A stretch of 64,000 bases of DNA from an uncultured Planctomycetales bacterium (GCA_964374105.1 CAYJXI010000001.1:7743-71742); one strand, 5' to 3'; shown: positions 15,601 through 42,600, counted from the first letter of the stretch. Program-made: numbers and translations. The notes: a model not told the origin generated them from the letters alone.

Positions 15601-18600
15601 ACCGGTCTGGTTTGAATTACTTACTCTCTTGGCGCAGAGATTGGGCAAGCAGGTATTGATCCCTGTTAAGGTGGCAGGCATGATCTTTGGTATAACAGAA
15701 AGTTTACAGGCTCAGCATATTCGGCCAATTGAATTGCCTGCTGAATTAAGCGTACTGCGTGTAGAGATGTTTAGATTTCCATCCAGGCTCTGGTATGACG
15801 ATCTTGGATTTACAAAGATTGATCTAGCTCAATCGTTTGAGCTGGAAGTATCCGGACAATTCTATATCTTCCCAGCGAAAAGGGATGATCAGCGCGAAGA
15901 TAATCCTGTGACTCCTGAGCCCACCGCCACAAGGTCGGGTGAACCGCTTTCAACAGAACAAGAAGACAAACTTCGGGAATACCTTAAACTCAAGGTAGGG
16001 CAGTTCAGCAGTTATGCGGACATTAAGGTAGACCAGATTGAGGCAACCATCAAGGCCTTGCGTGAGGCGGGCTTGAAAGCCTTGGCGAAGCGGCTGGAAG
16101 AACTCAAAGAAGCTCGTAAAATCCGCGCTGGGCCCAATGATGTTTTTGAGGAATTAAAGAATTTCGGCATTGATCTCTTGGCCTTCAACTTTAAAGACTG
16201 GATCATCATCCATCCGGAATTAGTAGAAACCCCCCATCGCATTCGCTTGCATCAAATCCTCACCCATGAGACAGCAGCAGTCCTTGGCTTCTCACATAAG
16301 ATTAACCTCATGTTTGAGAAGGTCATCACCAAAGAATTCACACAACAAGAACCAGGGTTTATTGATTTAGGTGAAAGAGAAAAGGTGTCTATCCCCGTTT
16401 CTGTAGTTGACAAAGTCGAGACTATCACTTTTAGAACTCAACCAGTTGGTTATCAAATCAAGAACAGACAGGTCATTCGGTTAGAGAATAGATTAAACCC
16501 GGATTTTGCATTGGCAAAATCCGCCCGAAGGGCCGCTACGGCATCCCGCCATGGCGGGACGCCTAGCGGGGTTAACCCCGCCAAAGGCGGCCGAAGGCAA
16601 AATTTGCAAAGCACTTTTCTGTATAGAAACAATCAACGAGGTCAAAGTCCTATTGCAAATTTTGGGTTAAAAGGCGATATGGCTAATGCTGTTCTCGGCA
16701 GAGGCAAGGGAGTCACTTTGTGGGAGGGCGGGGCTATCCAATGCAATTATTGTGTAATTTGGGATAGTTCAAGACGACAAGGGGCGATCATCCACACGAA
16801 TTATCTCCAATCCAAAGACATGATGGTGTCTTTCTTGAGAAATATTTTAGAGATATTAGGAATTCCATTAGAGGATAAGAGCTATTTAAGAGATCACGTT
16901 TTGACAATGATAGCTAATGCTCCTCACCAATCGGTCTTTGTCAGTGAGATGTCAAAGAGAATCGAAACCGTGCTGGCTGACAGCTTGGATGAATTAGGAT
17001 TGCCTCGGCTTAGGACGGATACCAGCGTTGCCTGGTATGTTACTCATATTCAATTTTTCGTAGATAAAGGAATAATACGATCAAGCTATAAGATTAACGA
17101 AAGGCAATTTTATCAAGTGGACTTAAAAGAATTGTCTAGATTGCGAAAAATGGGAAAAATGGGGACTGTCCCCATTTTTGAAGCCTCCGCGCCAATCTTC
17201 CGTGCCCTGCCTGCCGGCATAACAGGACCGCTTGAAGCCTTCGCTCCAATCTCCCGTGGCTCCCTGTACCACGTAGGGTACAGGGCCATGAACCCAACGT
17301 GGTTCATGGGGGTCATGAGAATTGTTTCCCAAACGACAGCGGCCCTTTTAAAATCTTCCGTGGCAGGCCCCGTAGAGAAACTTTACGGGGCAGGGAGGTC
17401 GCCGCAGATACCACTTGCACAAATCAAGGGACCGGTTATGCCTCACCATCCGTGGCAGGTGACGAGCATTCACCAGGGCCCATCTGCGGCGGCCTCTTCT
17501 TATCACAAGTCACAAGACATCCTTCGACTTCGCTTGGGACAAGCAAGTCAGCCCGCCCTGGTCTTCGCAACTGGCGGGCCAGGGAGGTCAGCCCGCCCCG
17601 GTCTTCGCAACTGGCGGGCCGGGGAGGTCAGCCCGCCCCGGTCTTCGCAACTGGCGGGCCGGGGAAGTCAGAAGACCCAAGATTCAGGACGCACAACGCA
17701 GAACACAGAACCCAAGACTCTGAACTCATTTGCACCTATCGTGATTGTGGGTTTAGGGATTGCAACGGTTGTCATCATCATGACGATCAAGGCTAAGAAT
17801 CGACTCATGAAGATAACCAAAGACTTTTTAAGTATTGCGACATTGATGGCCGTTGTTGGAAGTCTTTGGACGATTTGGATAAATCGTGAAAAAGAAGTTG
17901 AAGTGATTCCAAATACTCTTGATTCCCTCCCCCTTGTGGGGAGGGTTAGGGAGGGGGTGAGGTTACAGTCTTCACCCTCCCCTAGCCCCTCCCATCAATG
18001 GAGGGGAAATACAGGATTGGGAGAACAGGACGATTCAGCAAGAATTGTTTCGAGTGTCGGCCCAGAATTCTACAGAAGTGTCAGTGCCATACTCAACAAT
18101 TGGTTAGAGGAGAGAATGAAATATATTGTGATTGAATTAGCACCCAGAATGAGTCAAGAACAAACACGGAACCTCTTTCATCTCCTGAGGGCCATGCAGG
18201 AGGTCACAGAAACAAGTGGCTTGAATACACCTCTGCTGGGTGTAGATCGTATGGCCGTTGGCTTCCACGAAAGTGATCGTTTCAAAGCGAATCGTCAGTA
18301 TCGAGGGCCTGCCCGCGGGTGGCTGCAGGTGGAGAAGAATACCATTAAGCATGTGGTGGAAAATTTAATGCCTCGATATCCAACTCTTATTCCCATCGTT
18401 GTGAAAGAAGCCGCAGATTATCATAAGAGGGCAATGACCTTTAAAGATATTCAAAGATTAACGCCAGATGAACTCGGGGTGTTAGTCAGACAAAGGATTA
18501 AATTTGATGTGGCGGTTCATCTTGCTTACTTTATAGAGGAAATGAGTTTAGGTGTCAGGAGGTTAGCCACTCAACATGGTCTTCTCTTGGATCGAGAAAA

Positions 18601-21600
18601 TATTCCTGATTTCGAGGAAGGGTTGATCGAACGAGAAATCCGACAGTTAGTTAATGATAGCAACAATCCGCAAATCATAGACAAGATCTTGGAGGAAATG
18701 ACTAACCTGTGGCTTAACCAATGGAATCGAAAGCCGGGCGTCTTACAAAATCGGATTAATGAACAATCTCGATTGTCTCAAGAGATCCCATCTCTCAAAG
18801 AGAAGTTGGCAGATACGTTGAAAGACAAAAAAGATTTATTGATGCTTCGACCAGGCTCAGCATCAATCCTGAGCGAAGTCGAAGGATTGAGACTCTTTAA
18901 GACTCAAGCAACAAGCCCGAAAGAATTCTTATCATTCGCTGAACAGTTAATTCAACTGACTAAGGCTTCGGATGAACGTATTTCCCAATTACCCAGTGCG
19001 ATTAAGAAAGCCATCCGAACGATCATTAAAAAGGAAGAACGATTGAGCGAATTACCTGCCGAAATGGAAGAACTGAGAACCGAGATTAAGGCCTCCCAAG
19101 AGAAGTTTAGAAAAGAGATGAATGAACTTAAGCCGATCTTTAGATACATCTACATCGCGATGAGATTGCAGGTGATTTACAGCAAAGCTGTCCTTGCCTT
19201 GGAGAAGGATTCTCATCAATCCAATGCTACAAGCCAGGAGAAAAAGTCAGATAGCATCATTAGAGAAAAAATAAAATCTCAACCTAAGCCAGTTACAAAG
19301 AAAACCAATCGAAAAGGAAGATCATCCCTGAAGGCCATAAGTGAGGTTTATGGTCTAGTGCTTGTCGTAGGGCTTGTGATTTTAGGTGTGATAGAGCTCA
19401 TGCGACAAATCCAAGAGTCGCAATGGACCTTGGGTGAGCGGTTAAGACAAGTTCATCAAACAATAAAGAGACTCTTGCCTTTCCGTTGGATGGAAGTTGC
19501 AGGTTCAGGTGGCCTTTCTTTCCCGATGTTTATGGAAGGTATTTTAAACAGAGGAATAGGTGATAATCCATTTTTGATTCATGGCCGAGATGAACGATTA
19601 ATGCTGCCGGTATTTGAACAAATGGCGGATGCGCTTGAAGAACAATTGCTGGTAGCAAGTACAGATTTTCAATATTTGATTCACATTGTACAGAATGGGA
19701 AGAATAAAGAGAACCGTTTAAGGGCCTTAAAGACCTTGATTAAGATCCTGCTTGATCCCAACAAAGAACCTGCTTTGTTAAAGGCTGAGGGTCATCTCAA
19801 TGATAATGACAAACAAGCCTTAATCTCCACAAGGATTCATCAGGCCCTCTTTACTGTTATCAATACTGAAACTGATAAGGAAATTCAAAGATTGGCTTTG
19901 GAGGCGTGGGTTATTAATTCAATTGAATTGCTTGTGGAAAATCGTCATCAGGGGGATTCAGGGATTGTTCTCAATAGAATGTTACGCGAGGTCCTTGCCT
20001 TGAAGGTCGCCCGTTCTCAACAAGCCAATCTTGTCATGGAAGTCCTTGATGCCAAGATAAAACAATCCCCAGATAAGGACTCTCAAGAAGTTATTGAAAT
20101 GATGGATTGGCTAGAGAAGATCATCGAAAGAATCGATGATCTAGAAGAAGATGATGATATTGAATATCGAGGGTCATCGGGACTTAAGGCTTTTGGAACT
20201 GTCAGTATGATCATCCTTTTGGTGGGTTTAGGGACAATTTGGATTTACAAGAAATTTGCCCAAAACAAACACCCGGTGTTTGGCGGTGAACAAAACATAA
20301 GAGGTGAAGAAGTTTCTCGGAGAAAGGTATTCAAATGGATAGGATTAACCGCGGTAGCCATTGTTCTCAACTGCACAGGATGTTCACTAATCTGGCCACC
20401 CAAAGCACAGGATTTTGTACTTGTTAATTATGCGGTTGAGCCTCTCAACTGGGCTAAGATTACGGGGGATGCCCGAGTTGTCTTTTTGGGAGAGACCGAG
20501 CACTTTTCTTCAACCGATAAATATCTTGTTGCCAGATCTCTCAAAGAATTGAAGACATTAGGAATCACCCATTTGGCTCTGGAGAATTTGGAAGTTCATA
20601 CTCAGGATATTGTTGATGCGTATTTAAGAAAGGAAATTCCGTTATCCGAAATGGAGGAAAGGATCAGATCAAACCGGCTCCAAAGACCTAATGGGGAAAT
20701 TGTTTTACCGGCGATTTATCTGCCAGGATACAGAGAGATCTTCCAAAATGCCCAAGCATTAGGGATTAAAGTCATTGCCTTAGATAAACCTAAATATGAA
20801 GAACACACTATCCGGGAGCGTAATCTTCAGTGGGTAGAAATTATTTTGTCTATCCTTAAGAATGACAATAAGGCCAGGCTTTTAGTCATTAACGGCAATG
20901 CCCATTCGAATTATCAATATAGATTCCTAAGAAGAACAAACGCCTTTTATGCCATCCCCCAAGAGTTAACGCCAGTTGTCCCCGAGGCCATTCAAAACGA
21001 AGGCTTCCCAGTGGTCGTAACACAAATGGCAGGTATTGACGGCTCGGACCTCCCAAGCTATAGACATCTTATTATTGAGGCGGTAAAGAGATATGCTCAA
21101 GATGATAAGCGAGTAAAACTTGACCAGCCGCAGATGATGATTCCCCGCGAAGGGTTTGTTGATGAAATTTGCGATTGTTACATTTACGCCCCAGCCGTAA
21201 CGACTCTTAAAGCCTTTGACCCGGTGATCGGTTTGATTATGTTCCTTGGTATTGCCGGGTTGAGTTTATTGAAGAGGTCAAAGGTGAGGTCAAAGGTGAC
21301 TGTCACCTTTGGTGACAGTCACCTTTGGGCAAGGCGCTCGTTCCTAAGGACAGTCTTCGGGCTAGGGACAGCTTTAGGATTAATGCCATTTGCTCCAAAG
21401 AAAGCTCACGCAGAATTAACCGTTGATCAAAACCTGCCACCTGATCTGCGCCAGTTGTTTGAAATGGTAATCCCGATCGCACAAATCATGTTGACTAGGG
21501 AAATAAAAACAGAGGACCAGGAACTTAAAGAGCTCTCGAGAATTTCCCATCGATTCCTCTTAGAACCCGGCGTCAAGGTGACCTTTACCGTAGGTGATCT

Positions 21601-24600
21601 TAACCAAATCATCGCTAGTCAATCGAAAAACGAAGACGATGAGTATAGAAGAGAACTCATGAACCGACCCGATGCTGCCGCGCGGGCCATGGTGACCAGC
21701 TTAGGGGCCAATCGTTATGTTGTGACCTACGACTTTAGGATGATCAAGGCAGGGATGGCAGCCTTGATTACCGGGCTTGCTCATGAACTTATTGCTCACA
21801 CTTATATCATGGAGAATATGAAAGAAAAATTATCACCTCTGGAAGAGGAGAGACTCGCTTTTGCTTTGGAGATCAAATATATTGAGGTGCTGTTAGCCGA
21901 CCGCGATCTGGTTGAACAGATTACCTTGGGCGGCAGGAATTTAACGATCTACAACGATTTTAGAAATCTATTGGAATTTGAAAAAGCCACCCTGGCTTGG
22001 ATTGAAAAGGAAATAAAACAACAGAAGGCCGCGCAATTAAAGAAGACAATCGCCATCATTGGTGCAACAGCACTGACAGCGGGAGCAGGCGTCTTAGGGA
22101 CTTTACAGGTCATCAAGTTAAGAAGATTCAAGCGCGTTCGTCTCGTCTTTGATGCAATCAAGGGTCAAGGGGCATTTGCTCAATTGGATAAGCTTTTACG
22201 AAAACAATTAGTCGCCCAGTTTACAAAAGGTAATCGTTTCGAACGTGCGACCTTAAAGCAGGCCGGGCTGTCCACAACCCAGAGAGAAGAATTTAAAAAG
22301 AATTTATCCCGGATGATGAGTGAAGAGGAGGAAGACGAAGGGAATGAAGGCGGAGTGATGCTGGGAAGCGGGAGAGGCTTAAGTGCAGTGCAGGAGAAGA
22401 TGGTGAATCAGGCGCTGGTAGAGAGCGAGGTGAAGGAGGTCAGTGAGGAGGAGTACCGAACATTGGATGCGGGAGGCGAACTAAAGTCCGAAGGGGTGGT
22501 GATCCATAAGGTGAGCGGGTTGAATGCGAAGATCGAAGAGATCGGGCAAAGAGAACATACGATGTTTGGGGATGAGGTGGTGACGTATGCGAAGGTGAAG
22601 GAAGATGGGAGCAAGCATTTGTACTTGGATGAGCGGGAGATGTATGTGGTGATGAATCTGAGTGAGAGGTTAAGGAGGCAGTGGGGAAGTCATGAGTTAT
22701 TGCACTTAAAGCAGCCGATGCTGAGTGAAGAGCTGGTGCAGTTGCAGGTGCCAGTGGATGAGGTGTTAGAGGCGAGGGCGAAGTATCTGGGGTATGAGAC
22801 AGGAGAGGTGAAGGCCTTGGCTATAGTGAGGAAGGAAGGGGTGAAGGAGAAGGAAGTGAGTAGTGCGATGGCGGTGGCGAAGGAATATGGGGTAGTGCCA
22901 TCAAAGGTATTGGCGTTATCGAAGAAGCATGGACTGCCGGTGGTATTGACGGGCGAGGCGATGGGGCTTGCACAGAGGTATAAGACGACGATGAGTCAAG
23001 TAGCGTTGTGGGGCAAGAAGTATGTGGGGATTTTGAATAAGGCGGGGTTGAGCCGGGAAGAGATCGATGAGATCTGGCGGACGTTAGGGTATGAGCAGAA
23101 GGAAGAGGTGTTAGATGCGATCGAGAAGATATTAGAGATTCATCAGGAGATCGAAGAGAGTGAAGTAAAGTTTTCGATGAGTGTGATAGAGCTGGTGCGA
23201 GCGTATCGGGTGGTAGGGGATATGGATGAGCTGCGGGAGCTGGTGCGGATTGCGATCGAGCATCCGATGAGCGGGCGGGGATATGGGCAGGTAAAGCAGC
23301 GGTTCCCCGAGTATGCGAGATTTAAGAAGCTCTTGGAGATATGGGAGGAGTATGTGGAAGCGGGTCATCCGATCAGTGCCGAGATCATAGAACAGATGTT
23401 TGATAAGAAAGGGCGATCGCGGTGGGTGAGTGAGGAGGAGGAAGGTGAGGAAGAGGAATGGCATGAGGGCGGGGTGATGCTGGGAAGCGGGAGAGGCTTA
23501 AGTGCAGTGCAGGAGAAGATGGTGATGCAGGCGCTGGTAGAGAGCGAGGTGAAAGAGGTCAGTGAAGAGGAGTATGCTGCGTTGGATGTGGGAGGAGAGT
23601 TGAAGTCCGAAGGAGTGGTGATCCATAAGGTGAGCGGGTTGAATGCGAAGATCGAAGAGGTTGCCCAAAGGGAATGGACATCGTTTGGAGATCGGTTGAT
23701 CACGTATGCAAGAGTAGAAAAGGATGGCAGTAAGCACCTGTACCTGGATGAACGAGAACTGAACGTGATTATGTATTTACCATCCCGCATCCGTCAGCAA
23801 TGGGGCAAACATGAAATGGGTCATCTTAATCAACCATCTTTACCTGAAGAAAGGATACAGAAGGACGCTCCCATTGAGGAAGTCCTTAATTCACTAATCC
23901 ATCCAACTGAACCTATTGTCAAAGTATATGATGAACTCGGCGGGTTGAAGATATCAAGGAAAGATCAACTCTTTAAAGATAAAGAAGGAAAGAAGAGGCC
24001 GTATACCCGCAAGGGCCAGGTGTTACACACCTTCCATCTTGCTGTCCAAGAAGATTTGAAAGCAGTTATTGATCAGAAGATTCTACCTGCTCTCACTACA
24101 AAGAAAGCAAAAGCGAAGATAGAAGAAAATCTTCAGCTGATATTTAGACAGACCGGGGAATTTGGGAATATTAAAACGATCAGTATTTCCAACGGGATGT
24201 TGACCCCACTTTTCTTTGAAGAAGACCGCACTTACGTAGATGTGAGCCTGTTATTGATGCCTTCCGCTCCCTTTAAGGAATTATTGAGATTGGGTTCTGC
24301 CCATGCCTTTGAGAAGAGCCGAATATATCGGGTTCAGACGAGTAAAGGAAGCTTTATTGATGAGTATAAGGCCGATAGTGTGAGTGTGTTTGAAGTGGCT
24401 TTAAGTCTTCTAGCGGCGGATGAAAAAGTGCTTAAGCAACTGGAAGAGGCATTCAAGAATTTAAGCAAAGCTAATTGGGAACTTTCAGTTTATCAAGAGC
24501 TTATCGATGCCCTGCGGTATTTAAGAAGCCGCTTTGTCGTACAAAAGTATTTGTTAAAGGCACATAACATTTATGACATTTACGATTGGGAAATAGATCC

Positions 24601-27600
24601 ATTTCGGGATCGGTATGTGTTGAGTCAACAAAGAAAAGAGATATTAACCCGGGCGATCAAACTAAGAGAATCCTTACGAGATATTGTCGTAAGAAGAAAG
24701 AACATTATTTTGAGATTATTAGCCAATGATCCAAGATACATTGAAAAGAACAAAGAGAAAGAGAAAAAGAAAGAAAAAGAAAAGCGAAAAGCCATCAAAG
24801 AGCTTGCCCGCAGGAAATTCCTCTTACCCAGAAAAGCCGAGGTTGACCGGATAGCTCATCTGTGGGAAAGGCCGTATGAACAAATCGGCCAGGCCTTGAT
24901 TTCCTCAAGAAATCATCATTACTTGCAAATTATCCGATTAGTGCCCGCAGAGTTCATGCGGCTTTTGGGCATTCTTATCGATGCACGTTCTTTATCCAGT
25001 CATCTTCTTAAGAGCGGTTATACAAGGAAAGAGTTAAGCCAAGGATTTGGGATCTTCTTTAACCAAGTTGGAACAAGTCATGTCTCCATTGAAAGTCGGT
25101 ATAACGAGATGATGGCAGCCCTCATTTTATATCGCGGGGCTTTTAGCGAAGATCTCTTTAAGGAAATCTTTGCCCAACTGGAGGTTGCCGAAAGAAAGCA
25201 ATTGACGTCTTATTTAGGAGAACAGGTTTCGCGGGTCATTAACTATGAGAGAACTTATATGGGAATCATCAAATATCTTGCGATGTTCCCAGGAGCAACG
25301 GTAAAAGATTTGAAGGCTCAAGGATTATTTGCGGAATTGTTCGATCTGTTTATTAAGATTCACACAATGACCGTCCAGAAAGAAGAAGTCATTGAGCTGA
25401 CAGTCAAGGAAATGCGAATCAAGGCAAAGAAAGTCTTGATGACAAGACTTCTCTCCCGTTATGGTTGGGCCTTAGGGTTATTTTTAGCTCCGGGATCAAG
25501 GGTTGATAGAAACCAAGTGATCTCTTTTATTGGATATTACAAAGAACAAATTCACAGGATTGTCGATTTTTATCTTGACGGAACATTAGTGATGGATGAA
25601 ATGGTTTTAGAATCCATCAGTCATTTATTGCCTTACCTAGCCCTGGAAGGTTATGACAAGCGATTAGGGGTGGTGAGAAAGAAAGTCAAAGATTTTGGAT
25701 CACTTGAACGATTGTTTAGCGTGCCGTTGGAGTCCCCAAGTGAAACTTTAGCTGTAGAAAGGGCAGCGGTAAAAGCCATGTTAACCGCAGGGGATGAAGA
25801 GACGTTACGAAGGGTATTTAATGACTTGAAGAACTTCTATCAGACCCAGCGTAAACCAAAAGAAATCATTGCTGATTCCGCCATCGATTATGCCTTGGCC
25901 CTTATTCAGGGGGTACAAAAACTTTTACAAAAACCTGTCACTCAAGAACAACGGCAAATGGTCGCATCGATGGTAAAGGAGATTGCCTCTCATCTGATTC
26001 ATAAAGAGTTAACGATTACTTCAATACAAACTTCCATGGAAGAAAAGGCCAAACGGATCATCACCTCCATTCAGAATCTCCCTCAAGAGATTTTAACGGA
26101 AGCGCTGAAAGTGTTGACCGATCATACCATTCTTGATTTTATATTTTTCCGTGATGAAATGGCGGTTATCCGAACCGATGTGCTTAAAGTTGTTGATGCA
26201 GAAACCTTAAGTAATTATTTTTCAACCAAGAGCGAACGGGAGGTGACTTCAAGTCTTGCTCCTATCAAAGATAATATCTTGAAAAAGAAGGTTTTGGCTG
26301 CCATGAAGGCTACAGAAGTGGGTAAGATGCCCGCGATGGCCAAACATGTTTTAAGACGGGAAATTTACCTCAGGGAGACTATTCATTTACCCAAAGAGCT
26401 GACCGCTTATTCAGGGGAGGCTGTCCCGAATTATTACGCTATCTTAGGAGTTCCCATGAAAGCCACACCTTTGATGATAGACCGATCATTCAAGGCGCTT
26501 TCCTTCTTGTATCATCCTGACCGGGCTCAACCTTCTGAGAAGGCCAAGGCCGAAGAGGAGTTCAAACGGATCAATGAGGCTTACCAAGCGCTCTCTGATC
26601 CGCAGAGAAGGAAGGAATACGATGAGAGTATACCCAAGTATGCTTACTACTATCCGTCCAAGCCATGGTTAGAGTCGGATGTGGATCTGGATGCTCTCAT
26701 AGCCGAATCCGTGGTTTCGGAAAAGAAAGAAAAAGAAACGCCAAGCGAAGGTCAATACAAAACCAGTCCGTATCTTCCAGTCCGCTTGAGTGATCTTAAA
26801 AAATGGTCGAAAGCCTTGAGTGAAGATTTAGAAAAAGAAACTGGAGAAGCAAAAGAGCCCAAGAAAAACGAACCCCAAGGTCAAGGAGGGGCGATCCTTG
26901 CTTCAGGAAAGAGTTTGAGTGCTAAACAAGACTCGATTATCCGCAGGGTATTGAAGGAAGCTGAAATTGAGGGTACCGATATCATCGCATTTCGTATCCT
27001 TATTACCGAAAGTCCATTATCTGGAATGAATGTCAGAATCCAGGCCATCAAAGATTTCAATCTTAAGATCCGCCAATTGGCTGAGGAAGAGCAAGTGCCA
27101 TTTAAGGACAGAGTCGTGACCTACGCTTATGTAGATAAGTCAGGCGTAAAATATCTCTATTTAGATAAAATGGAGAGGGAGATGATCATTCATCTTCCTA
27201 AACATTTGCGTGATCAATGGGCAGAGCATGAAATGCTGCATCTTGAAAACCCAAGATTAACGGAAGAAGCAGTGCAAAAACGAGCTCCTATTGAAGAATT
27301 CTTGCGCGCCCTCTATCCTCCCGAAGAACCTACCATTAAAGTTTATGATCAGTTGGGAGGGTTGAAAATCACAAAGGTGTCATCGACGTTTACTGATATT
27401 GAAGGTGTAACGAAGGATGTTTCCTTCAAGGGTGAGGAGATCAGCACTTATCATGTTTCCTTAAGGCCAGATGATGCGAGGCATTTAACGAGAGACTTTG
27501 AGAAGATTTTACATCGTCGAATTAATAAACCCAGTTCGGAGAAGATAGGATGGAATTTTAATTTCTTGACGGGGGAGATCAGCCGGTTTGGTGCGATAGA

Positions 27601-30600: not shown

Positions 30601-33600
30601 CAAAGAAACCCGAAAGATCCGCGCCGGGCCAGTTGAGATCTTTGTTGATCTTAAATCCCAAGGAATTGATTTACTGGCCTTTAATTATGAAGGCTGGATC
30701 GTTATCCATCCGGAATTGATTGAGGCCCCAGACCACCTCTACTTGGACCAAGTCCTCATTCACGAGACAGGTGCCGTCTATGGCCTTAAGCATAACATCA
30801 ATCTCATTTTACAGAAAGTCGTCACTGAGAGACTGACGGAAGAAGAATTCCAAATGATCGATAAGGCCATTAAAGAAAAAGAGAAAAAAGGTACTGACTA
30901 CGAGGGGGTTGCAAATCAAGATTATGCCAGGATGGCCCAGCAACTTAAGATGGCTCGGAATTCCTTAACCGCTCAGTTCCCCGAAGAATTCAAAGTAACG
31001 ATTCCGGGACTCAATGTCCAAGAAAGAGAAGCCTTCTATTCTAAGGCCCGCAGTAAGACATACGATGGATTTAGATATCTTACGCACGGGTTAACATGGA
31101 TAACCTTTGAACATGAACAATTCCCGCATCTTCTCTTTCATGTCTATAAGACAGATTATAATCTCGCCTTTATCTCTTCCATTCTTCGAATTAAACTAGC
31201 CCTTTATCTTTTAGGACAAAGGCAGGTTAAGGTTGACGGGATTGAGATGTTAGAGTTTACTGGCGAAGACTATCAATATGCTTTCTTCGATCAAGTGGTA
31301 ATAACGAAAAAACCAAGCACTATCGGTGACTTTGGAGAAGGGGTTACCGATTATGTGTCTTTGAAGCCGATTATCGATAATTTCCTGAAGGCTGCTGAGG
31401 CAAGGATGTTAAGAAAAATTGAGCCTCTGATGTTCGATGAGGCGGCAATCCGTAAAGTATTAGAAGACTATTTTGAGGTGAATTTCCCCGATACGAGTTC
31501 ATTGTATTTTGTTCTTCCAGCGGTCTATCAACAAGCGAAGGAAAACTGGGAAACCGAGGAAGAGGCTTTATTAAAGGTCTTAATGGCGGAGAAGTATCTG
31601 CAAGAGCAAAGTAAGAGACTCTATGTTCCATCCATCGATGAATCTGAAGCCGTCGCTAGTGAAGGAGAAACAGCAGAAAACGAAGAACATTTACCAAAGA
31701 TAGAAGAAGCCGTTCAACAGGAAATCGATCGGATGGATATTGAGAAAGGATTAAGTGAACAAGAGGCACAGAGATTGGTGGAAATTTTAAGGCAGTATCA
31801 CCATATCTCTATTAAGGCAGCAGAAAATGAGTTGGTTACATTCGGTTATTATGAAGATAAAGAAAAAAGTGGATTGAGGTTGGTGCGCACGATTATATCC
31901 CTTCAAGGACGCAGGGTAGGAGTTATCGATTTTATGATCGATCATGATGGAAGTCTTGCCAAAGCCGATTATGGATTCAAGCCACATTTTAAGAAGATGG
32001 AGCGGGATATGAGGCTTGAGGAGGTTCCGGAAAATCAGGATCTTGCTATTTATGTTGAACCAAGGTATCAAGGTTTAGGCATTGGCCGCACTCTGATGGG
32101 TCTGGCTTTAAGGATAGCGAGGCAATTAGGGGTTAAGGAATTCTCGTTACGAGATGTGTCCGTAGGTTTCGAGCCGAAAGCCGAGAAAATGGGTTTCAAG
32201 AAAAATGAACATTCGGGTCGTCTCAACGAATATTTCTGGCCTTTTGAAGAAAGAGAACTGCCTAGGATTCAGATGAAAATAAGCGGCAGGTCCCAGGCCC
32301 AGGGATTTGAGCCCAAGGGATCTATTCGCTCAAAACATCGCGGGGAAGTGGATTTAAGTGAAGAAGAGATGTCGAGGATCATGGCTAACCCACAGACTAA
32401 GGTCACCCAGAGATATAACAGAGAGTGGATTTTAAGAGTCATGGGTGCCTTGGAGGCCTTTGGCGGACAAACAACAGTTAACGGGGAACAGTTATTGAAT
32501 CGGATAAAGAAACGTATCGAAGAGGCGATACTGTTCTATGAGAAAGAGCGAGATCAATGGCAGAGGCAGTATGAGGCTACGATGGATCGAAGACAACGGG
32601 GATTGTATTTTAAGTATATGACAACCGCGGAAGGGATGATCAAAGAGCAAAGGGAACAAAAAGAGTTGTTAAAAGGCTTGTTTGCTGATGTCAGGAGTAT
32701 TTATCAAGTGGTCATCGACACCATTGGGAAGTTTAAGATTCATTCGGTGATATTACCGGAATCGGAACAATCTAAATTGATTAAAGGTCTTGATAGATAC
32801 ATCGTCATGTGGGTGAATCCTGGGGAAGATTCTATCGCTGAAATAGCCGGCCTTTTGGATTATTTAAGAACTCAGCCCCAGGGGATCCTGCTTGTCAGTG
32901 CAGCCTTAGGGCATGAGGCATTAGAATTTTATTTAAGAAAACAAGGGATCGAGGCTGATTTAGCCCATGCCTTGGCGGAAGATTTTGAGCGTATGATTCT
33001 TAAGGAAGACCTAGATACCCCCAAGAGTCAGTATGATTTGGCCATTGAAAGATTTTTGAATGAGAAAATATTGGGTGTTGTTGAGGTAGGGGCACGGCAT
33101 GCCGTGCCCCTACCTTTGACCAAGTCTGTAATTGCTGGGGATAGCTCGCCTCGTGCCGAGGACATCGGCGCTGTCATCGAACCAAAGACAGCCGAAGGTG
33201 AAGTAGTTATTGTGGAACCAGTTACTGCGGAAACGAAAATTGAAGAGAGGCCAAAGGAAGAAGCCGTTGAACAAAAGGCCTTAGAGGCAGAAGCAATTGA
33301 AGAACGAATTGAAAAGCCGGCTGTTACTGTTGAAGCCCCAACTCAAGAGCCAATCAAACCAAGTCATCAGCGCAAAGGGATTACTGAGGAGAGATTCTTA
33401 GAGGTTGCCTTGAATCATTTGGAGGATGAGAATCCGCGCGAGACCATTGCTCTTGAACTCGGGATTAATATTCAAACAGTTTCTTATTGGTTAAAGAAGC
33501 TGGGATTAGCTGGGGAAGTTATTGCAAAACGATTCAAGAAATCTGTAGCCGAGAAGGGAGAGAAGAAAGAACAGAAGAAGGAAGACCAGAAGGAAGGGGC

Positions 33601-36600
33601 GGCGATCCCTGAAGTTAAGGAAGAGGCAGCGACCGGTGAGGTCGTGAAAGAAATTTCGATACTAGCTTTTGAAGAAGTTAAGATCAAAGCGCCAAGCGTG
33701 ACTGAAGAACAGAAAGAGTTAACCGCGGAAGAATTGTTTGATTCCGTAATTCAAGAAATGGTTGAGAATATGCAAGTTTATATTGAATTAGAAGCTGATT
33801 TTGATGATTTCTGGACCGAAGTGACATCTGGGAAAAAGATTTCTTCTGAGGTGGCGCAAGCTGTCCGCCGGCGGTTGATTAAGGAGTTTGACGTGCATGA
33901 TCCTCAGCAATTTTTCAGTGTACTTATGGCCAGTCATGGCAAAAAGTATGGTTCTTATAAAGAGTTGTTTGAAGCCACAAATGTAAAGACAAAGGTGATA
34001 CGAAGAATTGATCGTGCTTATAAGCGCTTAACGGGCTTAAGTTTGATTGAAGCGACACAAGGTGGGGCAGAGGGAGAGGATCAAGAAGAGCAAACCCAAG
34101 AGCGACTTCCCAATTACTATCATCTTATTGGTATGAATACCCGAGGCCGCGCTGAGGCGCCGACACAGGGCGATGTTCATCGGTTCCTCTTAGGCAAGAA
34201 GCGGCTGACAGGTGAGTTAAAGGGACTAGCCAAATGGCTCGAAGGTCATCTTCCGACTTATCAAGGCGATACATTAGAAGATTATCGCAGAGAATGGACC
34301 AGGGTTTACGGTAAAGAAAAAGGTTCACCCAATCGTTCTGAACCAACCGCCACCCGTTCGGGTGAGCCGTTGAGTGAAGAGCAGAAGCGTCAGCTGAGGG
34401 AATATCTTAAACTCAAGGTTGGGCAATTCAGCAGTTATGCGGTTGTCGAAGACACGGCCATTGATACAACTATTAAAGCCCTAGGTGAGGTTGCCTTTGA
34501 AGTCTTGGCGAGTCGCTTAGAGCAACTCAAAGAAACCCGTAAAATCCGCGCCGGGCCGAATGAGATCTTTAGTGAACTTCAAGCTCTCGGCATTGCCTTG
34601 TTAGCATTCAATTATGAAGAATACGTCATTGTCCATCCGGAATTACTCGCCGCAGAAAAGCAAACCCGTCTAAGGCAGATTCTTGCTCATGAAACTGGTG
34701 CGATTTATGGTCTGGAACATCAAACCAATCGATTATTAGAAAAAGTCATCACTCAAGAATTGACGGCTGAAGAAAGGGAAGCGATCCACAACGAAATTGT
34801 TAGTTTGGCTCAGCCAGAGGAAGAACAGTTAAGATCCTTCCGCGAGCTTATCTTAACGAAGATCACCAGTGACGCCATTAGGCAAAAGGCAAAGCAGATA
34901 TTAACCAAGGCGCGATTAAGGGCCCTCTTACAGCCATCAGCTAAGCATTACACCAATGAATTTAAGCCCATTAAAGATATTTTTGAAAATTCACGATACG
35001 GAGAAACTATTAGATTAGTCAAAGAGGATACTAAAGCTATTGTTGAGGCCGTCAAAGAGATGAAACACATCTTGGCAGTTAATCCACAGAGCCATCTGTT
35101 TGACATCGAACAATGGGATGAAAGGGTCTATGCTCCTTCCATGAGAGGAATGTTCGATCAATTTGAGAAGAAATCACTGACCATTGAGGGACTTAAAAGA
35201 CAGATGCAGAAAATAGTAGAGCCATTTAGTGTAGCCTTTGATCTTACGGAATTCATTAAAGAAAGCGAGGAGCTCGAATTCTATCATTTGGTTGAGATCG
35301 GCGCTTGGGTTTTAGCCAAGATCATTATTCCGCATGGGTTGGTGATTCAGGTTTCTCCATTTGAATCCAACAAGCTGATTAAGGGCCGGGTCCTTAAGGA
35401 TCGAACCGAATTGATTACAACACATGGGGCAGGATTCTCAAGGCAGATTCCGGTTTATACCGTTGATGCTAAGATTTCCGAATTTGGTTCAGGTATTGCT
35501 AGGCCAGATTACATTGTCATGCCATTGAATCTCCAGCATGAAGAACCCCTTATTCATTATCAAAAGCTCTTTAAGGCCTATAGGGAAGGCCGTTATCGTC
35601 CTAAACCGTTTGATATTGACCCGCACGGCTTTTTGCTGGATTGGGTGATGATCAACCTGGTTGGATCCAAGACGACAAGTGAGGTACAGCAACTGCTTAG
35701 AAAAGAGGCACTTCAAGAAGAGATCGCCCATTCCGATACCTTTGCCTTTGTGGAAACCCTCTGGGACAGGAAATATCATTACTTTATGAGGAGTGAAACT
35801 ATCCAATTTGTCCATACGATTTTAGAACCCTCGGGCTGGTTAAGAGAGATGTTCAATCAGCATAAAGAGAAGCCTGCTCTTCACTCACTCACTGCTGATG
35901 CGATTATTGAAGTAGAGGCCAAATTGCAATCTTTGATGAAATCACCTTACCCAGCCCATACGGTCTTGGAGTTCTTGTTAGCCAGTCTCTTCCCTGAAAC
36001 TGCCAAACTTGAAAAGCCCCAATACAAGGTTGCCTATAACACGCTGACTGTTTTGTTGGCCGTCGAACTTTTGAATAAGCCAACCATTGAACTTAAAGAC
36101 TGGTTTGATTTCCTCAAAGAGGTTTACCGGGATCTTGATTTGTTCAACAAACTCCTACCGGAAACTGCAAAGGAAATTTACGAACGGCATTTCTACAGTC
36201 AAGAAGAACGAGTAGCAATTCTAAAAGGAAAAGGTAACAGTCACAAAGAAGCTGGCAGGTCCCTTAAGGATTCTAAGGAAGGGCCGCAGACACTCGCCGC
36301 GTTTGAACCGCTGACATTCATTGCCTTGTTAGCGGGTTTTGGGATTTTAGGAGTTTATATGACCAGATGGGTTGCCGGCAGATTCAAGATCAAAGGGTCT
36401 GATCAACAACACATGCACCGGCGTGGATTTATAAAATTAAGTTTAGGAACTATGGGCTTGGCGGCATTCGCTCCGTTATTGACATGCTGCTCTTTAATTC
36501 CAGGTTCATCGCCGCGTAAAATTAACTCAGATCATTTGATTCTCATCGGTATGGAACACAATGTGTTCGGGGATCCGCAACATCCCGCGAGTGTCTTGCA

Positions 36601-39600
36601 GAGACAGCTTGCTATGGCAGCCAGCCAAGGCGAAATCGTCTTAGGAATTGAGGAAGTTGTCCGAAACGATGCCTTTGAAGAAGAATTTATTAAAGGCCAG
36701 TACGGCTTCAAGAAAGGATTGATCTTTGGATTCGATGAGGAATTCCCTAAGCATTATATTCACACACTCCTCAACTTCGGTCTCCTAGCTATTGGTACGG
36801 GGGGAACGGCAACGGATGAATCTGAAAAAATCATTTTAAGAAGAATAACAACCTCGGCGAGGGTGTATTTACCAATTTTTATAAAGACAAGCTCAGTCGT
36901 TAGAGAATTCTGGAAAGAGCTACCCCGCCAGTTACCGAAAGATGAGGACGGTTCGCTCATAAGAGAATTATATGAAAAGATTGATCGTTTTGTGGCCTCT
37001 GAGAAGGATTCCAACCTTAGAGATTTTCAGACAAAGGCCTTTAAGGAGTTTGAAACTTTTGGTTCCAATATCCTTTGGTCTCGAATTTATAAGATTATGG
37101 CTTCTGCCATGACCGAGGAGGCTATGAAGCATTACAAAGAAATCCACTATCTTAAGGAAAAAATAAATGATTTCCTCAAGAATCCTGTTGAAGAGGAGAA
37201 CCAACGAATTATCATGGAAGAGTTAAATCACTACTGGCGTGAATCCTTTATTATCAAAAATATGAAGGCCATCGCGGATATCGCTATTGAAAAAAGGCTC
37301 CCTGTCTATTTCCTCATCGGATTTAATCATGTTAAGAAAATTGAGGAAGCTTTAGGGCAAAATTATCGGAATCTGAAGATTTTAACTTTTGAACATTTTG
37401 AACAATTCCCACAAAGGCTTTTACCCAGAATCCCAGAACGTGTTTCGGATGCGTTAAACAAACACCGGGTGTTTGGAGAATCATCCGGGCCTCAAGATGC
37501 CAACGAAAACGGCTTGCCGCGAGAGGTTGTTGATTTAGCGGTGTTGTTGACAGAAAGGATCACTAAGCAGCCGATTCAAGACTGGGCCGCAGTTAAGGTT
37601 GATTCTAAGAAAGTCCGACAGGCCATGGTCCTCTTAGGGAATGAAAATAAATTAAGACAGCGGTTGGCTGAAAGCGGGGTTCATTTTGTCCGCGCTCCTC
37701 CCAAGGTTAACATCCTTTGGGATGCTGTTGGGGTAGCAAACTACCGAGATCCCTCTGGCCGTCTTTTTGTCATTCTCCCGCAGAAGACAACCACCGAGGC
37801 GATTGCCCATGATCTTTGGGCGGTTATGAATCCTTCCCTGCCTCACTCCATCAATCCGATCAAGATTTCAAAAGAAGAATTAGACACAGAGACACTTGTT
37901 GAACTGATTGTTGAGACGACCCAAGATACCAAGGATATCTTAAGCCTGCTTGAACATCCGGGCCTGTCGGTTGAAGGCAAGGCCTATATGCTTATCGCCC
38001 TAATTCGCATTGGCCTACAGAATTCTATGCAAACCATCAGCCTCCAATTAGAAAACGAACCCTCCTCACCACAGGACTTGCTGGGTATGCTTGCAAATGT
38101 GCTGGGCCCGGTCTTAGCAAATCTCTTGAGCGGATCCTCCACATCCTTGCTGGAGAAAATCGAAAAGGATTTGGCTAATAGAGGGGACCAGATCATTCCT
38201 GTCTTTGAACGCGCCTTGGAGCTTTTTAAGACGGTGGAAGACCAACGGCAGCGGTGGTTTATTTACAGCGTCTTGAGTGAGATGAAAGAAAAGGGTCTCG
38301 CCGAGCTCATGCGCTATTTTGATAATCCGCCTAACCCTGCCGACCAGGAGTTCATTGTCTACGAGATCACTCAAATGGGTCCGCCTACGTCCATTGAGTT
38401 TGCTCAAAGTCATAAGTTGAAGGACTCGTATGAAACCGTCTTGAACTTTATTATTCAAGCCTTCACCCGATTTGTGCCGCCGATGTTAATGAGATACATA
38501 TTGCTTATGATAGCTAATGAAGGCGAGAAAGAGATTGTCGCTGATATCGTGCGTAAGATGGCGGAAAGCGATAAATCGTATTTTAATAAAATTTTGGAAT
38601 TCCTTAAGGCACAAGGCTCTCCTGATGTTGTGGAAAAATTAAACAAATATCTAGCCAAGGCTGAGGAGACGGGAGAGCAGGAATTCCACTTACCTAAGCT
38701 CAACGTGAATGAACTTAAGATAAGTGCATTTAAGAGTAGGGTAAAGAGGACGATTAAGGGAATCAAGGGCCTTGAGGATCTCCACACCCGGTTTGAGGAA
38801 GGGTTATTGGTGGCCAACGGTGAGCTCAATGATCTTAAGCGCGTGGTTATTCACGGAAAATATGCCGAAAATCGAAAAGCCGCAATTAAGGCTATTGAGG
38901 AAATCCTTCAAGTTGTAGCTAAGACCAAGTTGGCGGGAGGGCAAGTGAGGGTTAAGGGACAAATGATCACCAATGAGGAAGTGTTCCTGCTTCTCATGAC
39001 CCTTTTCCAAGTTCTTGATGAAGATCCAGAAGAAGTTGTTTATAAGGAATCGGCAAGGGCAGCGGTTGCGGTCATCCTCTTATTTATCACGATTGAGGAT
39101 GAGGATTTCCGCTGGGGTTATAAAGAGCGCTATCAATCGTATTTGGATAAACTGCTTAAGTCGCCGCGTATTGATTCGGTAATTGATGCCTTGATTGCCA
39201 TCCGCACCGATAAAGAAAAGGATGACAGGGTCTTGAAGGCTGCAAGGGCTATGCTTACCGATATTGTCAAGGCCCGCGGTCAGGGACCGGATAGCCTCAA
39301 GAAGAATAGGGAAAATGGAGACAGCGCCCAATTCCCTGAAGATTCTACCGCCACTCGTTCGGGTGAACCGTTGACAGAGGAAAAAGAACGGCAATTGAGG
39401 CAATACCTCAAACTGAAAGTTAAAGACTTCTCTGGTTATGGGGTGGTTAATGATACCGCGGTGGATAAAGTCATCACGGCCCTGGGTGAGTCCGGATTTG
39501 AGGTACTGGCGAAGCGGCTGGAAGAACTCAAAGAAACCCTCAAGGTCCGTGCTGGACCGAAGGCGATTTTCGATGAACTCAAGGCCCAAGGCATTGACCT

Positions 39601-42600
39601 GTTGGCCTTCAATTTCGATGTATGGTTGGTTGTCCATCCAGAGTTGCTTAACCCCGCCGAGCAAACCAAACTTCAAGAGATTCTTGCCCACGAGACCGGT
39701 GCGATTTTCGGTTTACCACACGAAGTCAATCGACTTCTAGAAAAAGTCACGACCCAACAACTCACTCAAGAAGAAATCCAGGATCTTTTTGATGCCGCCC
39801 AGGAGATCCTTAAATCACAAAAGATGACTCCCAGAAGTCCTGCTGGCCGACAGGAAAACGGAGCCTATCCTGCCTCAGAGAAGATCGCAAAAGAAGATAT
39901 CATCATCTCAGTGCCGTTGTTCTTCCTGGAAGGGACGGCGTACAATTCCATCCGGAAGTACTCTCTTCGACTAGAGAAGCTCAGAGGGATTGGTCCTCTC
40001 ATAAGAAGTGGACGATTCTTTATCTCTAAGTACTTCCTGCCAGAACTTATTGGTGTGGCTAGAAAATTACAAGAGCGGAAGGCGAATGCCATTCATTTTG
40101 ATGTTCAACAAAAAGAGGGAATACAAAGATTGGGAGTCCTCGGACAGGATATCACTAGGATCTATAATCCCAAATTAATCCGGCGGTTACGCCAAAACGG
40201 CGTGACCCTTCCCATCGAGGTACATCTTATGTATTGGCAACCCTCTTCCCGGTATTTGAGGGCTTACAGGCAAGCGGGGTTAGGTTCCCAAGATACCATT
40301 TTCATTCATCATAACGCTTACGAAGATCCTAAGGAATTAGTTGAAAAATTGGCGCTGATCCGCACCCTGGGGATAAGAGCGGGTATTGCCTTGAGTCTCC
40401 AATACGGCACTGAGGAATTGACCGAAGAGATGTTGATTTCTGCTGATGCCATTCTCTTGTCGGCGGTAATGGAAGGAACACGTGGAGGGACATTTGATTC
40501 CCTGGTGGCTCAGAAGTCGAAAGAAATTTTATCTAGAAATTTCCAGGGAAGGATCCACATCCAAGGCGGGATTAATAAAGAGACTATTGGAATTGCTGCC
40601 TCAGGTGGGGCAACGGCTTTCGTCTCCGGTACGTTTGTGACCCAATCACCGGATATGACAAAGGCCATGGGGATCTTAAGAGAAGAGGCAAGGAAAGGAT
40701 ACAAACAAATAACTGCCGGATACCAGGCTGTGCGTAGCGAGGGGATGGATAAGGTGTCTAGTCTTAATTTTGAGGTTCTGGCGGGCAAGACTGTCTTAGT
40801 AACAGGGGGCGCTGGCTATATCGCCGCTGGTGTTATCCATGATCTATTGAAGGTGAATACCGAGGTGGTCATTTACGACAACTCTATGCGGGATCGGGAA
40901 GAAATCACCAAAATGCAAGGTATCACGATAGTGGAAGGGGATTTGAGCGATCAGACATTACTTGAAAGAACGCTTAAGGAGCAAAGAGTTGCGGCTGTTG
41001 TCCACTTGGGGGCCTATATTGCCGCAGGGAACTCTGTGAAGAATCCTGGGAAATATTTCTTTAATAATGTTGTCAACACCCTGACCCTGTTGGATAGCAT
41101 GGACAGGGCAGGGGTCAAATACCTTGTGTTTGCCTCCAGCGCCGGTGTCTATAGCGGAACCCTATTCAATGAATCAGGATTATTGGATGAGAACATTACC
41201 CCGGATCCGCAGAATCCTTACGGTGAAACCAAATATCTGATGGAACGCCTGATGCAGGATTATACAACAAAGAAAGGGATCCGGTTTGTGGCTTTGCGTT
41301 TCTTCAACGTCGCCGGGGCGTTTGAGTGGCAAGGAAGATGGTTCGGCGAAAACCATGAAGGGCCTGAGACTCATCTTATCCCACGGGCGATTAAATCTTA
41401 TTTATATGGGAATGAATTGATCCCATTTGAGCTTTTTGGTACAGATTACCAGACACGTGACGGGACGACAATCCGAGACTACATTCATCTTTTGGATTTG
41501 GCTGATGCCCATATCCGGGCTTTGATTCATCTTTTTAATGGGGGATTGAGTTTCATATTGAATCTAGGGACTGGTCAAGGGTCGACTGTTCGGGAAGTCG
41601 TTGAGGGGGTAGCTAAGATTATTAAACTGGAAGAAAACAAGGAGTTCCGAGTTAAAGAGGGGCCACGGCGTGCAGGAGACCCGCCCATCTTGCAGGCCAG
41701 TAGCCAGAAGGCCTTAAAGCAGTTGGGCTGGCAGGTTAAGAGAGATTTACAACAAATTTTGGAGGATGCCTGGGTTTTCCATAATCTAGAGAAACAACAC
41801 GGCTGGTGGAATTTGAAGACCATCGCCCCCGAAGATCGCCTGACCACAACTGAGGCTGAGTTTAGAACAATGGTGACTAAGGAGTTGAAAGCGAATGCGG
41901 TCATCACACCGCAAACCCGGTTTGAAATTCTCTTTAGGTTGTTGATTGATTCGCTGGTTGAAGGAGTTAACGATTCTACATTTAAGTCTTCAGCACAATC
42001 CAGGGCGTTAGTCGAAGGAGCCAGAGGACTCAAATCCCAGCCGGGCGAGTTGATGGAAGTCATCCACAGCAACGAGAAATTCTTTGCTGATTTTGAGAAG
42101 TTCTTAGAATCCCAATTTGTTTCAACGGATCCCTCCCGCCTAGAAATCATATCTCAACTTAAAGAAGACCTTTCCTCAACAACTCTTGGCGGGGAATCCA
42201 ATCTAGCGGACGTGAGCGGTCATCGTGGAAGCCCAATCCCCAGCCGATTGGCCGAGATGAGGAAGAAAGGGAAGGGAAAAGAGGATCATCATCCTGAAAG
42301 AAAGATAGATCCGAGGGAAGGGCCCAATGGTCTTTCTGCGTATGAACCGTTAGTTATGCTTGTCTTGTTGGCGGGAGTGGGAATCTTAGGAATTTATAAG
42401 AAAAGGTGGTTTGCCAAGAGATCGGCTATCTTTGAAGGGCGTGTTGATCATCAAAGAGAATTTGAGATTATCGATCGGATTTATTCTTATGTCTTATCTG
42501 GTATTGCTCGATTCCAAACCACGTCAGTACTATTATTAACAATAACAACATTCCTAGTGCCATTTCCAACATTTTACTTGTCTCCATTGTTCTTGCCAGG

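Follow-up and report, generated by a model that had tools for sequence, protein, structure and literature searches.

Hydrophobic helices that follow a short motif and precede a basic cluster are known from the tripartite sorting signals of the PEP-CTERM/exosortase, PGF-CTERM/archaeosortase, GlyGly-CTERM/rhombosortase and MYXO-CTERM/myxosortase systems, for which Haft's list of attributes served us as a checklist. In these systems the signal is C-terminal, motif and helix meet without a spacer, the basic cluster is mostly arginine, and several copies occur on otherwise unrelated carriers that also have homologs without the signal. Stop-transfer and start-transfer sequences are another known arrangement, in which a signal-like helix restarts translocation after a hydrophobic helix with a cytoplasmic basic tail; such helix pairs mark off the separate mature proteins of viral polyproteins, whose internal signals are cut by signal peptidase. 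Here we analyze a 64,000-nt stretch of DNA (the window) from an uncultured Planctomycetales bacterium (GCA_964374105.1 CAYJXI010000001.1:7743-71742), which is occupied by a single open reading frame (ORF) holding five segments, anchors 1 to 5, that an earlier note on this DNA had compared to PEP-CTERM signals. We propose, with a probability of about 0.6, that the five segments are internal membrane anchors at the joints of exported-protein genes that were fused end to end, and that they now serve as topogenic hairpins. The locus would differ from the stop-transfer/start-transfer and viral systems in that the ORF is bacterial and longer than 21,000 aa, and in that its restart helices would be fossil twin-arginine translocation (Tat)/lipoprotein-type signals from once-separate genes.

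The giant mosaic protein encoded by this ORF is probably of the Omnitrophota type. Its closest named long homologs are proteins from Candidatus Omnitrophota metagenome-assembled genomes, at about 30% identity. With the giants of that lineage, as they are described in the searched passages of two preprints (10.1101/2023.11.21.568195; 10.64898/2026.06.07.730766, "multi-enzyme metabolic" class), it shares a length far above 10,000 aa, a density of about one transmembrane (TM) helix per 800 aa, and embedded metabolic enzymes (GalE, ribulose-phosphate 3-epimerase [RPE], uridine-kinase-like and glycosyltransferase/phosphorylase-like) with odd predicted localizations. Many internal TM helices are a described trait of these giants in both sources, as far as those passages go, and there West-Roberts et al. 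(10.1101/2023.11.21.568195) noted implausible localizations too. Depletion of cysteine is likewise common to the ORF and its long homologs. A shared anchor motif, the pairing of anchor with signal, fossil signals at joints and the placement of Cys are all absent from the searched passages of both preprints. The same portions of the 2023 preprint (10.1101/2023.11.21.568195) state outright that cleavage points in giant proteins are undocumented and leave open whether these are a single chain or pieces, whereas the other source (10.64898/2026.06.07.730766), in the part seen, suppressed signal-peptide calls on the non-first chunks of four split giants as artifacts of chunking.

Five internal anchors and their shared motif

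Frame +2 contains no stop codon in 64,000 nt, whereas each other frame contains hundreds, and the ORF is certainly coding. Because frame +2 is free of stop codons, the earlier note was correct in placing all five segments inside the ORF. The anchors and the features at their joints have the following window coordinates.

2..63998, + strand: the single ORF, open at both window ends and longer than 21,333 aa; a mosaic combining enzyme-type domains and internal repeats with about 25 hydrophobic helices
17717..17800, + strand: anchor 1 (aa 5906-5933), TLNSFAPIVIVGLGIATVVIIMTIKAKN; hydrophobicity scan and motif alignment
17807..17881, + strand: second helix of pair 1 (aa 5936-5960), MKITKDFLSIATLMAVVGSLWTIWI; resembles an N-terminal signal-anchor
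19292..19402, + strand: signal-like segment (aa 6431-6467), a basic n-region KKTNRKGRSSLK and a hydrophobic helix, with six K/R upstream and one downstream
20180..20269, + strand: anchor 2 (aa 6727-6756), GLKAFGTVSMIILLVGLGTIWIYKKFAQNK; hydrophobicity scan and motif alignment
20312..20389, + strand: internal twin-arginine/lipoprotein-like signal (aa 6771-6796), VSRRKVFKWIGLTAVAIVLNCTGCSL; ends in a Cys pair directly 5' of the ChaN-like domain
20468..20821, + strand: ChaN / Cofac_haem_bdg domain (aa 6823-6940); Pfam E 4.1e-9, 37.2 bits, cut-off 27.7
21203..21295, + strand: anchor 3 (aa 7068-7098), TLKAFDPVIGLIMFLGIAGLSLLKRSKVRSK; CxC pair 9 aa upstream (aa 7057/7059)
35033..36253, + strand: domain of unknown function (aa 11678-12084) upstream of anchor 4; has free-standing homologs
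36224..36394, + strand: anchor 4 module (aa 12075-12131), KGKG...EGPQTLAAFEPLTFIALLAGFGILGVYMTRWVAGRFKIK; self-BLAST and alignment
36410..36493, + strand: fossil Tat/lipoprotein-type signal peptide (aa 12137-12164), HMHRRGFIKLSLGTMGLAAFAPLLTCCS; hidden Markov models (HMMs), homolog alignment and AlphaFold2
36527..37426, + strand: downstream domain, tentatively ChaN/Tiki-like (aa 12176-12475); co-linear with whole proteins
42266..42430, + strand: anchor 5 module (aa 14089-14143), KGKG...EGPNGLSAYEPLVMLVLLAGVGILGIYKKRWFAKRSAI; paralog of the anchor 4 module

All five peptides cited in the earlier note are present in frame +2, at most 16 nt from the positions given for them. The cited peptides start at SFAPIV (aa 5909, nt 17726), KAFGTV (aa 6729, nt 20186), FDPVIG (aa 7072, nt 21215), AAFEPL (aa 12099, nt 36296) and YEPLVM (aa 14114, nt 42341); position 21215 was exact, and 17710, 36302 and 42334 become 17726, 36296 and 42341. 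The (F/Y)EPL signature ascribed to them holds for anchors 4 and 5 but not for anchors 1-3, which read FAPI, FGTV and FDPV; the ORF as a whole shows no excess of [FY]EP (7 observed versus 5.5 expected). What all five anchors have in common is [TG]-L-x-[AS]-[FY]-x-[PT]-[LIV], followed by a helix with a G-Phi-G core and then by a K/R cluster. Leu, the small Ala/Ser and the aromatic Phe/Tyr are found in 5/5 anchors and Pro in 4/5, only four of the copies being independent; the helix runs for 16-19 residues after the Pro, and the basic tails have 3-5 K/R in the 15 aa after the helix, with Lys at least as frequent as Arg.

Since this pattern was read off the same five sequences, we ran a block test that does not assume the motif and instead takes the best ungapped eight-column block among the four independent anchors by sum-of-pairs score. 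The best block was TLNSFAPI / GLKAFGTV / TLKAFDPV / TLAAFEPL, with a score of 113 versus 54 +/- 11 for zone-preserving shuffles (P about 0.0003); against random quadruples of the ORF's other TM helices, P was about 0.004. The tripartite layout of signature motif, helix and basic cluster that had been noticed is thus real and goes beyond chance. The anchors had been pre-selected from about 25 hydrophobic segments, which leaves a residual selection bias; they are exactly those helices in aa 5900-14230 that combine a basic tail with the first place in a helix pair.

Indeed, every anchor is the first member of such a pair, with a second helix 3-60 aa later that the earlier note overlooked and that is the most telling part of the layout. 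The tail of anchor 1 (...TIKAKNRL) runs directly into a Met-initial second helix (MKITKD plus helix), VSRRKVFKWIGLTAVAIVLNCTGCS lies 22 aa past anchor 2 and directly before the ChaN domain, and MHRRGFIKLSLGTMGLAAFAPLLTCCS lies 6 aa after the tail of anchor 4 (...GRFKIK). The anchor motif is found again as GLAAFAPL (aa 12153-12159, nt 36458-36478) at the outer end of the fossil signal helix, 55 aa after TLAAFEPL, and would therefore lie at the periplasmic membrane face in both helices. A seventh copy of the motif, LEAFAPIS (aa 5744), is not followed by a helix.

Anchors 4 and 5, which had been called near-duplicates, are related, with 15/25 residues identical in the stretch that was quoted. They share a module of 56 aa that is 50% identical (BLASTP E about 1e-11) and is set between unrelated flanks, and this module is the only thing that self-BLAST aligns among the anchors; the others have no detectable likeness beyond the eight-residue block and the Gly pattern. 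The two modules are 57% identical in their DNA and have the same third base in 15/27 conserved degenerate codons, and we therefore take the duplication to be old, not recent, and its products to have been conserved as protein. A homolog of 5,999 aa, P0081, has two nearly identical TM-hairpin modules of its own (aa 3550-3595 and 4324-4369; GRPKKRRGL-IFLIPPA...-VSIGVGAAL...). This ORF is therefore not alone in having duplicated hairpin modules; the motif in P0081 is a different one.

Just upstream of anchor 1, by 46 nt, is a GC-rich tandem repeat with a 40-nt period (17547-17671, + strand; aa 5849-5890; 3.1 copies, 96% matching; 74% GC versus about 45-50% in the flanks). Since 40 is not divisible by three, every copy is translated in a frame of its own, and the three copies, 120 nt in all, leave the ORF open; with one unit more or fewer, the frame would change and translation would end after another 46 or 97 aa, at anchor 1. 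Unit 1 departs from units 2 and 3 at two complementary positions within an inverted repeat (CCCTGG/CCAGGG versus CCCCGG/CCGGGG). The array might have arisen by insertion of a GC-rich repeat element, or it might work as a copy-number switch; its RNA folds no better than shuffles (z = -0.9).

Proposed joints between formerly separate genes

The earlier note had raised the possibility that such segments are relics of the C-termini of genes that fused. At anchor 4 this idea is well supported by where homologs end and start, and at anchors 1 and 3 it is plausible. An exhaustive phmmer search with aa 11440-12639 against 1.84 billion representatives gave 94 matches. Free-standing homologs of the upstream domain stop 0-25 aa past the equivalent of HFYSQEER (aa 12063-12070; F[LY]SxEER), and none of them continues into an anchor. 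Several carry N-terminal signal peptides, which indicates that this family is often exported. On the other side of the joint, aa 12176-12475 matches whole free-standing proteins of about 280-300 aa end to end, some of which begin at a conserved GxxH and others, such as P0157 (MKGYSKICLALIFIVFCGC), with a Sec or lipoprotein signal at the N-terminus. When 22 homologs were aligned with the window by MAFFT, five of them had their initiator Met opposite M12138 and their signal-peptide Cys opposite C12162/12163; M12138 itself comes only 6 residues after the basic tail of anchor 4. AlphaFold2, given that alignment, predicts a confident fold for aa 12169-12475 (predicted local distance difference test, pLDDT, 87.5; predicted template modeling score, pTM, 0.84), with the first 36 residues, that is, the basic loop and the signal-like helix, disordered and outside the folded domain. 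The order at this joint is thus the end of an exported family, a linker, the motif, helix and basic tail, six residues, and then a Met with a Tat/lipoprotein-type signal and a whole-protein domain. Furthermore, an internal Tat-like signal precedes the same downstream domain in P0072 and P0076, both long Candidatus Omnitrophota proteins, and in P0106, and the free-standing homolog P0094 ends in a linker, a TM helix and RKRSRAK. We tentatively assign the downstream domain to the ChaN/Tiki-like proteins; weak Pfam matches were obtained for 4/23 members of its family, and neither Foldseek nor profile searches found a match in the PDB.

The reference patterns for the signals are S/T-R-R-x-F-L-K plus h-region for Tat and [LVI][ASTVI][GAS]C at the end of the h-region for the lipobox. 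Residues 12138-12163 resemble Tat/lipoprotein signals in having a Met, RRGFIK, an h-region and Cys, aligned to true N-terminal signals, and aa 12137-12160 is the best match of both Tat models in the ORF: HRRGFIK and its h-region score 16.9 bits with PF10518 TAT_signal over the full profile (cut-off 22.7) and 15.2 bits with TIGR01409 (cut-off 16.7). A comparable segment at aa 6771-6794 consists of SRRKVFK, an h-region and CTGC, the last of which resembles the FCGC of the N-terminal signal of P0157; the SRRKVFK segment (aa 6772) has no match to Tat-signal HMMs. The copies in the ORF differ from genuine Tat/lipoprotein signals in being internal, in falling below the HMM cut-offs or finding no match, and in their non-canonical lipobox, and scans with a canonical lipobox and with a strict Tat-plus-h-region regular expression had no match.

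Cysteine is rare throughout the ORF, which has only 16 Cys in 21,333 aa (0.08%), all of them in eight CC/CxC/CxxC pairs (aa 3935/36, 4078/81, 4468/71, 5140/42, 5581/84, 6791/94, 7057/59 and 12162/63), where random placement would give 0.07 Cys with a neighbor at most 3 residues away. Two of the eight pairs stand at the exact ends of the two RR-type signal-like helices (HRRGFIK and SRRKVFK), and a third stands 9 aa before anchor 3. After aa 12163 there is no Cys in the last 9,170 aa, the GalE domain included. The pairing could reflect an exported or oxidizing location, or metal or disulfide sites. Depletion of Cys may suit an exported chain and may equally be a trait of the lineage, other long Omnitrophota-type homologs being likewise Cys-poor (0-0.1%).

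At the other anchors the layout suggests similar joints. The joint at anchor 1, with a Met directly after the tail, plausibly has the same layout as that at anchor 4. The signal-like segment at aa 6431-6467 would open a unit that ends at anchor 2, and the ChaN domain sits in a unit of about 270 aa between the internal signal (aa 6771-6796) and anchor 3, which is the size of a free-standing homolog. A query with this ChaN unit (aa 6760-7110) found no matches in a word-indexed search and none by BLAST against the retrieved proteins, so the joint evidence at anchors 2 and 3 consists of unit size and the Pfam match. Inspection of the DNA at the joints revealed no convincing relics of Shine-Dalgarno sequences or stop codons; the CAA-CAA pair that precedes the ATG at nt 36413 might derive from a TAA, which cannot be proved.

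Based on these observations, we envisage an ancestral unit that would have begun with a signal peptide, continued with an exported domain and ended in a tail with L-x-A/S-F/Y-x-P, a Gly-containing helix and a Lys/Arg cluster. The simplest history would be that two genes fused end to end, the first with its C-terminal anchor and the second keeping its signal peptide. After the fusion the old anchor would act as a stop-transfer helix running from outside to inside, with its basic tail in the cytoplasm, and the signal peptide of the next unit would act as a start-transfer helix running from inside to outside, such that the next unit would again be exported. As a helical hairpin, anchor and signal together would fasten the chain to the cytoplasmic membrane, and the chain would pass from outside through an inward helix, a short basic cytoplasmic loop and an outward helix to the outside again. 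Fusion of this kind would leave the topology unchanged and may therefore explain why it was tolerated repeatedly; a signal-bearing gene fused behind an exported domain that had no anchor would leave the second domain in the cytoplasm. From these layouts we infer both that the anchors were once C-terminal and that they now stop transfer, and cleavage at the joints is possible.

The joints suggest how such genes grow, by adding the next signal-bearing protein to a C-terminally anchored exported protein with topology kept. On whether and where giant proteins are cut, they provide candidates at residue level, namely the five anchors with the motif and two or more fossil signal peptides with rare Cys. 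Signal-peptide calls within giant proteins could, moreover, at times be genuine and not artifacts. Even if nothing is cut, the hairpins would define unit boundaries and ease structure prediction and annotation.

Several observations weigh against this reading. The homolog evidence for a joint comes from anchor 4 only, and the motif was found in no other protein: an HMM of the five anchors and the motif regular expression found nothing in the 165 retrieved homologs, the exhaustive phmmer search with a query spanning the anchor did not recover it elsewhere, and an alignment of the two-copy module found nothing in genome contigs, metagenome contigs or a 5.8-billion-protein index at E <= 10. The ancestral C-terminal anchor is therefore deduced and not observed with this motif. 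The Cys ends LLTCC and NCTGC are unlike the lipobox pattern. Orientation of the anchors is assigned by the positive-inside rule, according to which a helix with a cytoplasmic C-terminal end carries a basic cluster; a strictly alternating orientation of the helices breaks down at aa 5942/6446 and is unclear at aa 7350, and hydrophobicity and charge alone give no fully consistent in/out topology. Furthermore, an outside location would put the J-domains, GNAT, RPE and GalE in the periplasm, which would be biochemically odd.

Tripartite sorting signals and rival readings

The anchors resemble the signals on Haft's list in their spacerless motif-helix junction followed by a basic cluster, in the occurrence of several copies on otherwise unrelated carriers with homologs that are free of the signal, and in the signal-peptide-like segment that opens each anchor unit. 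They differ in that all five are internal, with at least 7,190 aa after the last one, in that L-x-A/S-F/Y-x-P matches no described signal, and in that their tails are K-rich. Another of Haft's attributes, an N-terminal signal peptide, is absent from the ORF as it stands; signal-like segments (aa 6431, 6771 and 12137) do precede anchors 2, 3 and 5, which is suggestive only. The specific resemblance to PEP-CTERM drawn in the earlier note is not supported. As PEP-CTERM candidates the anchors fail at the motif itself, reading FAPI, FGTV, FDPV, FEPL and YEPL instead of Pro-Glu-Pro; PEP occurs twice in the ORF (aa 5305 and 9978, versus 2.8 expected) and at none of the anchors. PF07589 aligns to anchor 4 with 12.9 bits (cut-off 20.7, E 0.13) at profile positions 4-21, the helix part only, and does not match anchor 5; TIGR02595 has no match in 50-aa windows around the five anchors, and two other anchors give only sub-threshold NCBIfam alignments, to PEFG-CTERM and Loki-CTERM. 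No exosortase or archaeosortase was found in the ORF (Pfam aa 1-21332; NCBIfam aa 1-20000), nor any member of the rhombosortase, sortase or signal-peptidase families.

Genuine PEP-CTERM signals served by an exosortase or archaeosortase encoded elsewhere in the genome would account for the tripartite layout, for a Gly-rich helix like those of PEP-CTERM and for the weak Pfam alignment on anchor 4, but given the absence of P-E-P at the anchors, the models below cut-off, the internal position, the Lys-rich tails and the lack of an exosortase in the window we consider this highly improbable. Another proposal is that the anchors are ordinary TM helices of a multi-pass giant, their motif being only the product of intragenic duplication and of preferences at helix starts (aromatic belt, N-cap proline) and unconnected with gene ends or sorting. 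The ORF is rich in internal duplications, P0081 also duplicates TM hairpins, a basic cluster is expected of any helix with a cytoplasmic C-terminal end, and the motif pattern was derived post hoc from five helices picked from about 25. However, outside the eight-residue block and the Gly pattern no likeness is detectable beyond anchors 4 and 5, their flanking sequences have nothing in common, and the block test separates the anchors from the ORF's other TM helices at P about 0.004. Nor do ordinary helices predict that at anchor 4 homologs end and start within a few residues of the joint, and on balance we find this explanation unlikely.

Also unlikely, in our judgment, is that the joints are active polyprotein sites, at which some membrane-embedded enzyme would still recognize the anchors as a new tripartite signal and signal peptidase I/II would cleave the signal peptides that follow. 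The product would be separate surface-anchored proteins, as with viral polyproteins cut at internal signals by host signal peptidase. Most of Haft's attributes apart from C-terminal position are present, and stop-transfer helices are normally motif-free, yet here a motif is conserved and has been kept in an old duplicate pair. The rare Cys pairs that exactly end two signal-like helices align with the signal-peptide Cys of homologs, the available passages of both Omnitrophota preprints leave the cleavage of giant proteins open, and there are ten HExxH sites in repeated domains, some beside multi-TM clusters. On the other hand, the window encodes no sorting enzyme or signal peptidase, the motif fits no known signal model, and no free-standing protein with such a C-terminus was found; the lipoboxes are non-canonical, the HExxH domains could be assigned neither by Pfam nor by PDB sequence searches, and sorting enzymes are described as acting on C-terminal signals. 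Such processing would also be without precedent. In its fullest form, this reading would make the anchors an undescribed class of internal sorting signal, with some membrane-embedded sorting enzyme cleaving the polyprotein at each anchor and signal peptidase/LspA doing so at each fossil signal, which we think rather improbable; if true, one translation product would give rise to a set of separately anchored or lipidated surface proteins. We favor fusion joints that now act as membrane hairpins.

The ten HExxH sites in the ORF compare with about one expected. They lie at aa 358, 1443, 2002, 2422 and 3427 (nt about 1073-10300), at aa 7564, 7937 and 9076, and at aa 14425 and 15375, and 8/10 belong to two repeated domain families, with FEGHExFH found five times and WxxHE(L/M)xHL three times; some FEGHExFH copies adjoin the multi-TM clusters at aa 1519-1650 and 2063-2254. 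These domains may be divergent zinc-peptidases that could process the protein in cis; their Pfam matches are sub-threshold only, and no sequence match was found in the PDB.

Other features of the open reading frame

Pfam/NCBIfam domains in frame +2 span aa 1127 to aa 17125 and include cytidylyltransferase-like, uridine-kinase-like, ChaN, GNAT, RPE and GalE domains, two J-domains and a glucan-phosphorylase/glycogen-synthase-like region; SecA-DEAD, C39 and S8 domains were not found in the window with these libraries, a point of difference from the described Omnitrophota giants. The roughly 25 hydrophobic helices identified by hydrophobicity scans all precede aa 14228, and self-BLAST of the ORF revealed many internal repeats. 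Features away from the joints described above, or following anchor 5, are these.

22022..22138, + strand: Ala/Gly-rich, moderately hydrophobic helix (aa 7341-7379) with basic residues on both sides and ambiguous orientation
40064..40639, + strand: RPE-like domain (aa 13355-13546); Pfam/NCBIfam
40793..41788, + strand: GalE (UDP-glucose 4-epimerase) domain (aa 13598-13929); TIGR01179 311.8 bits, equivalog cut-off 262.3
42518..42685, + strand: two further hydrophobic helices (aa 14173-14191 and 14195-14228) after anchor 5, the last strong TM candidates in the ORF

The GalE domain is 46% identical to its best match, and a query combining RPE, GalE and anchor 5 matched ordinary or fused GalE proteins and no giant relative. 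Peptide-pattern scans with aa 11967-12233 and aa 12040-12330 recovered no close relatives of the ORF from genome, viral or metagenome contigs, and megablast of the 24.7-kb region had no match in plasmids or phages. Neither strand of the window has tRNA genes or Rfam families. The few antisense ORFs all lie within the giant gene and look incidental.

A four-fold repeated domain (aa 5241-5461, 10059-10293, 11442-11591 and 13100-13258; nt about 15722-39775) is 40-67% identical among its copies and conserves TATRSGEPL...IRAGP...GIDLLAFN...HPEL...HETGAxxGxxH. The last of these elements looks like the metzincin HExxHxxGxxH except for an Ala in place of the second His, and Matrixin matches are sub-threshold (13.7-21 bits). 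The strongest purine skew in the window is at 22001-24000 (aa about 7334-8000; GC skew 0.44, AT skew 0.19, GC 50%), just downstream of the helix at aa 7350, where it overlaps the start of the repeat family at aa 7433-7591 / 7825-7964 / 8933-9103.

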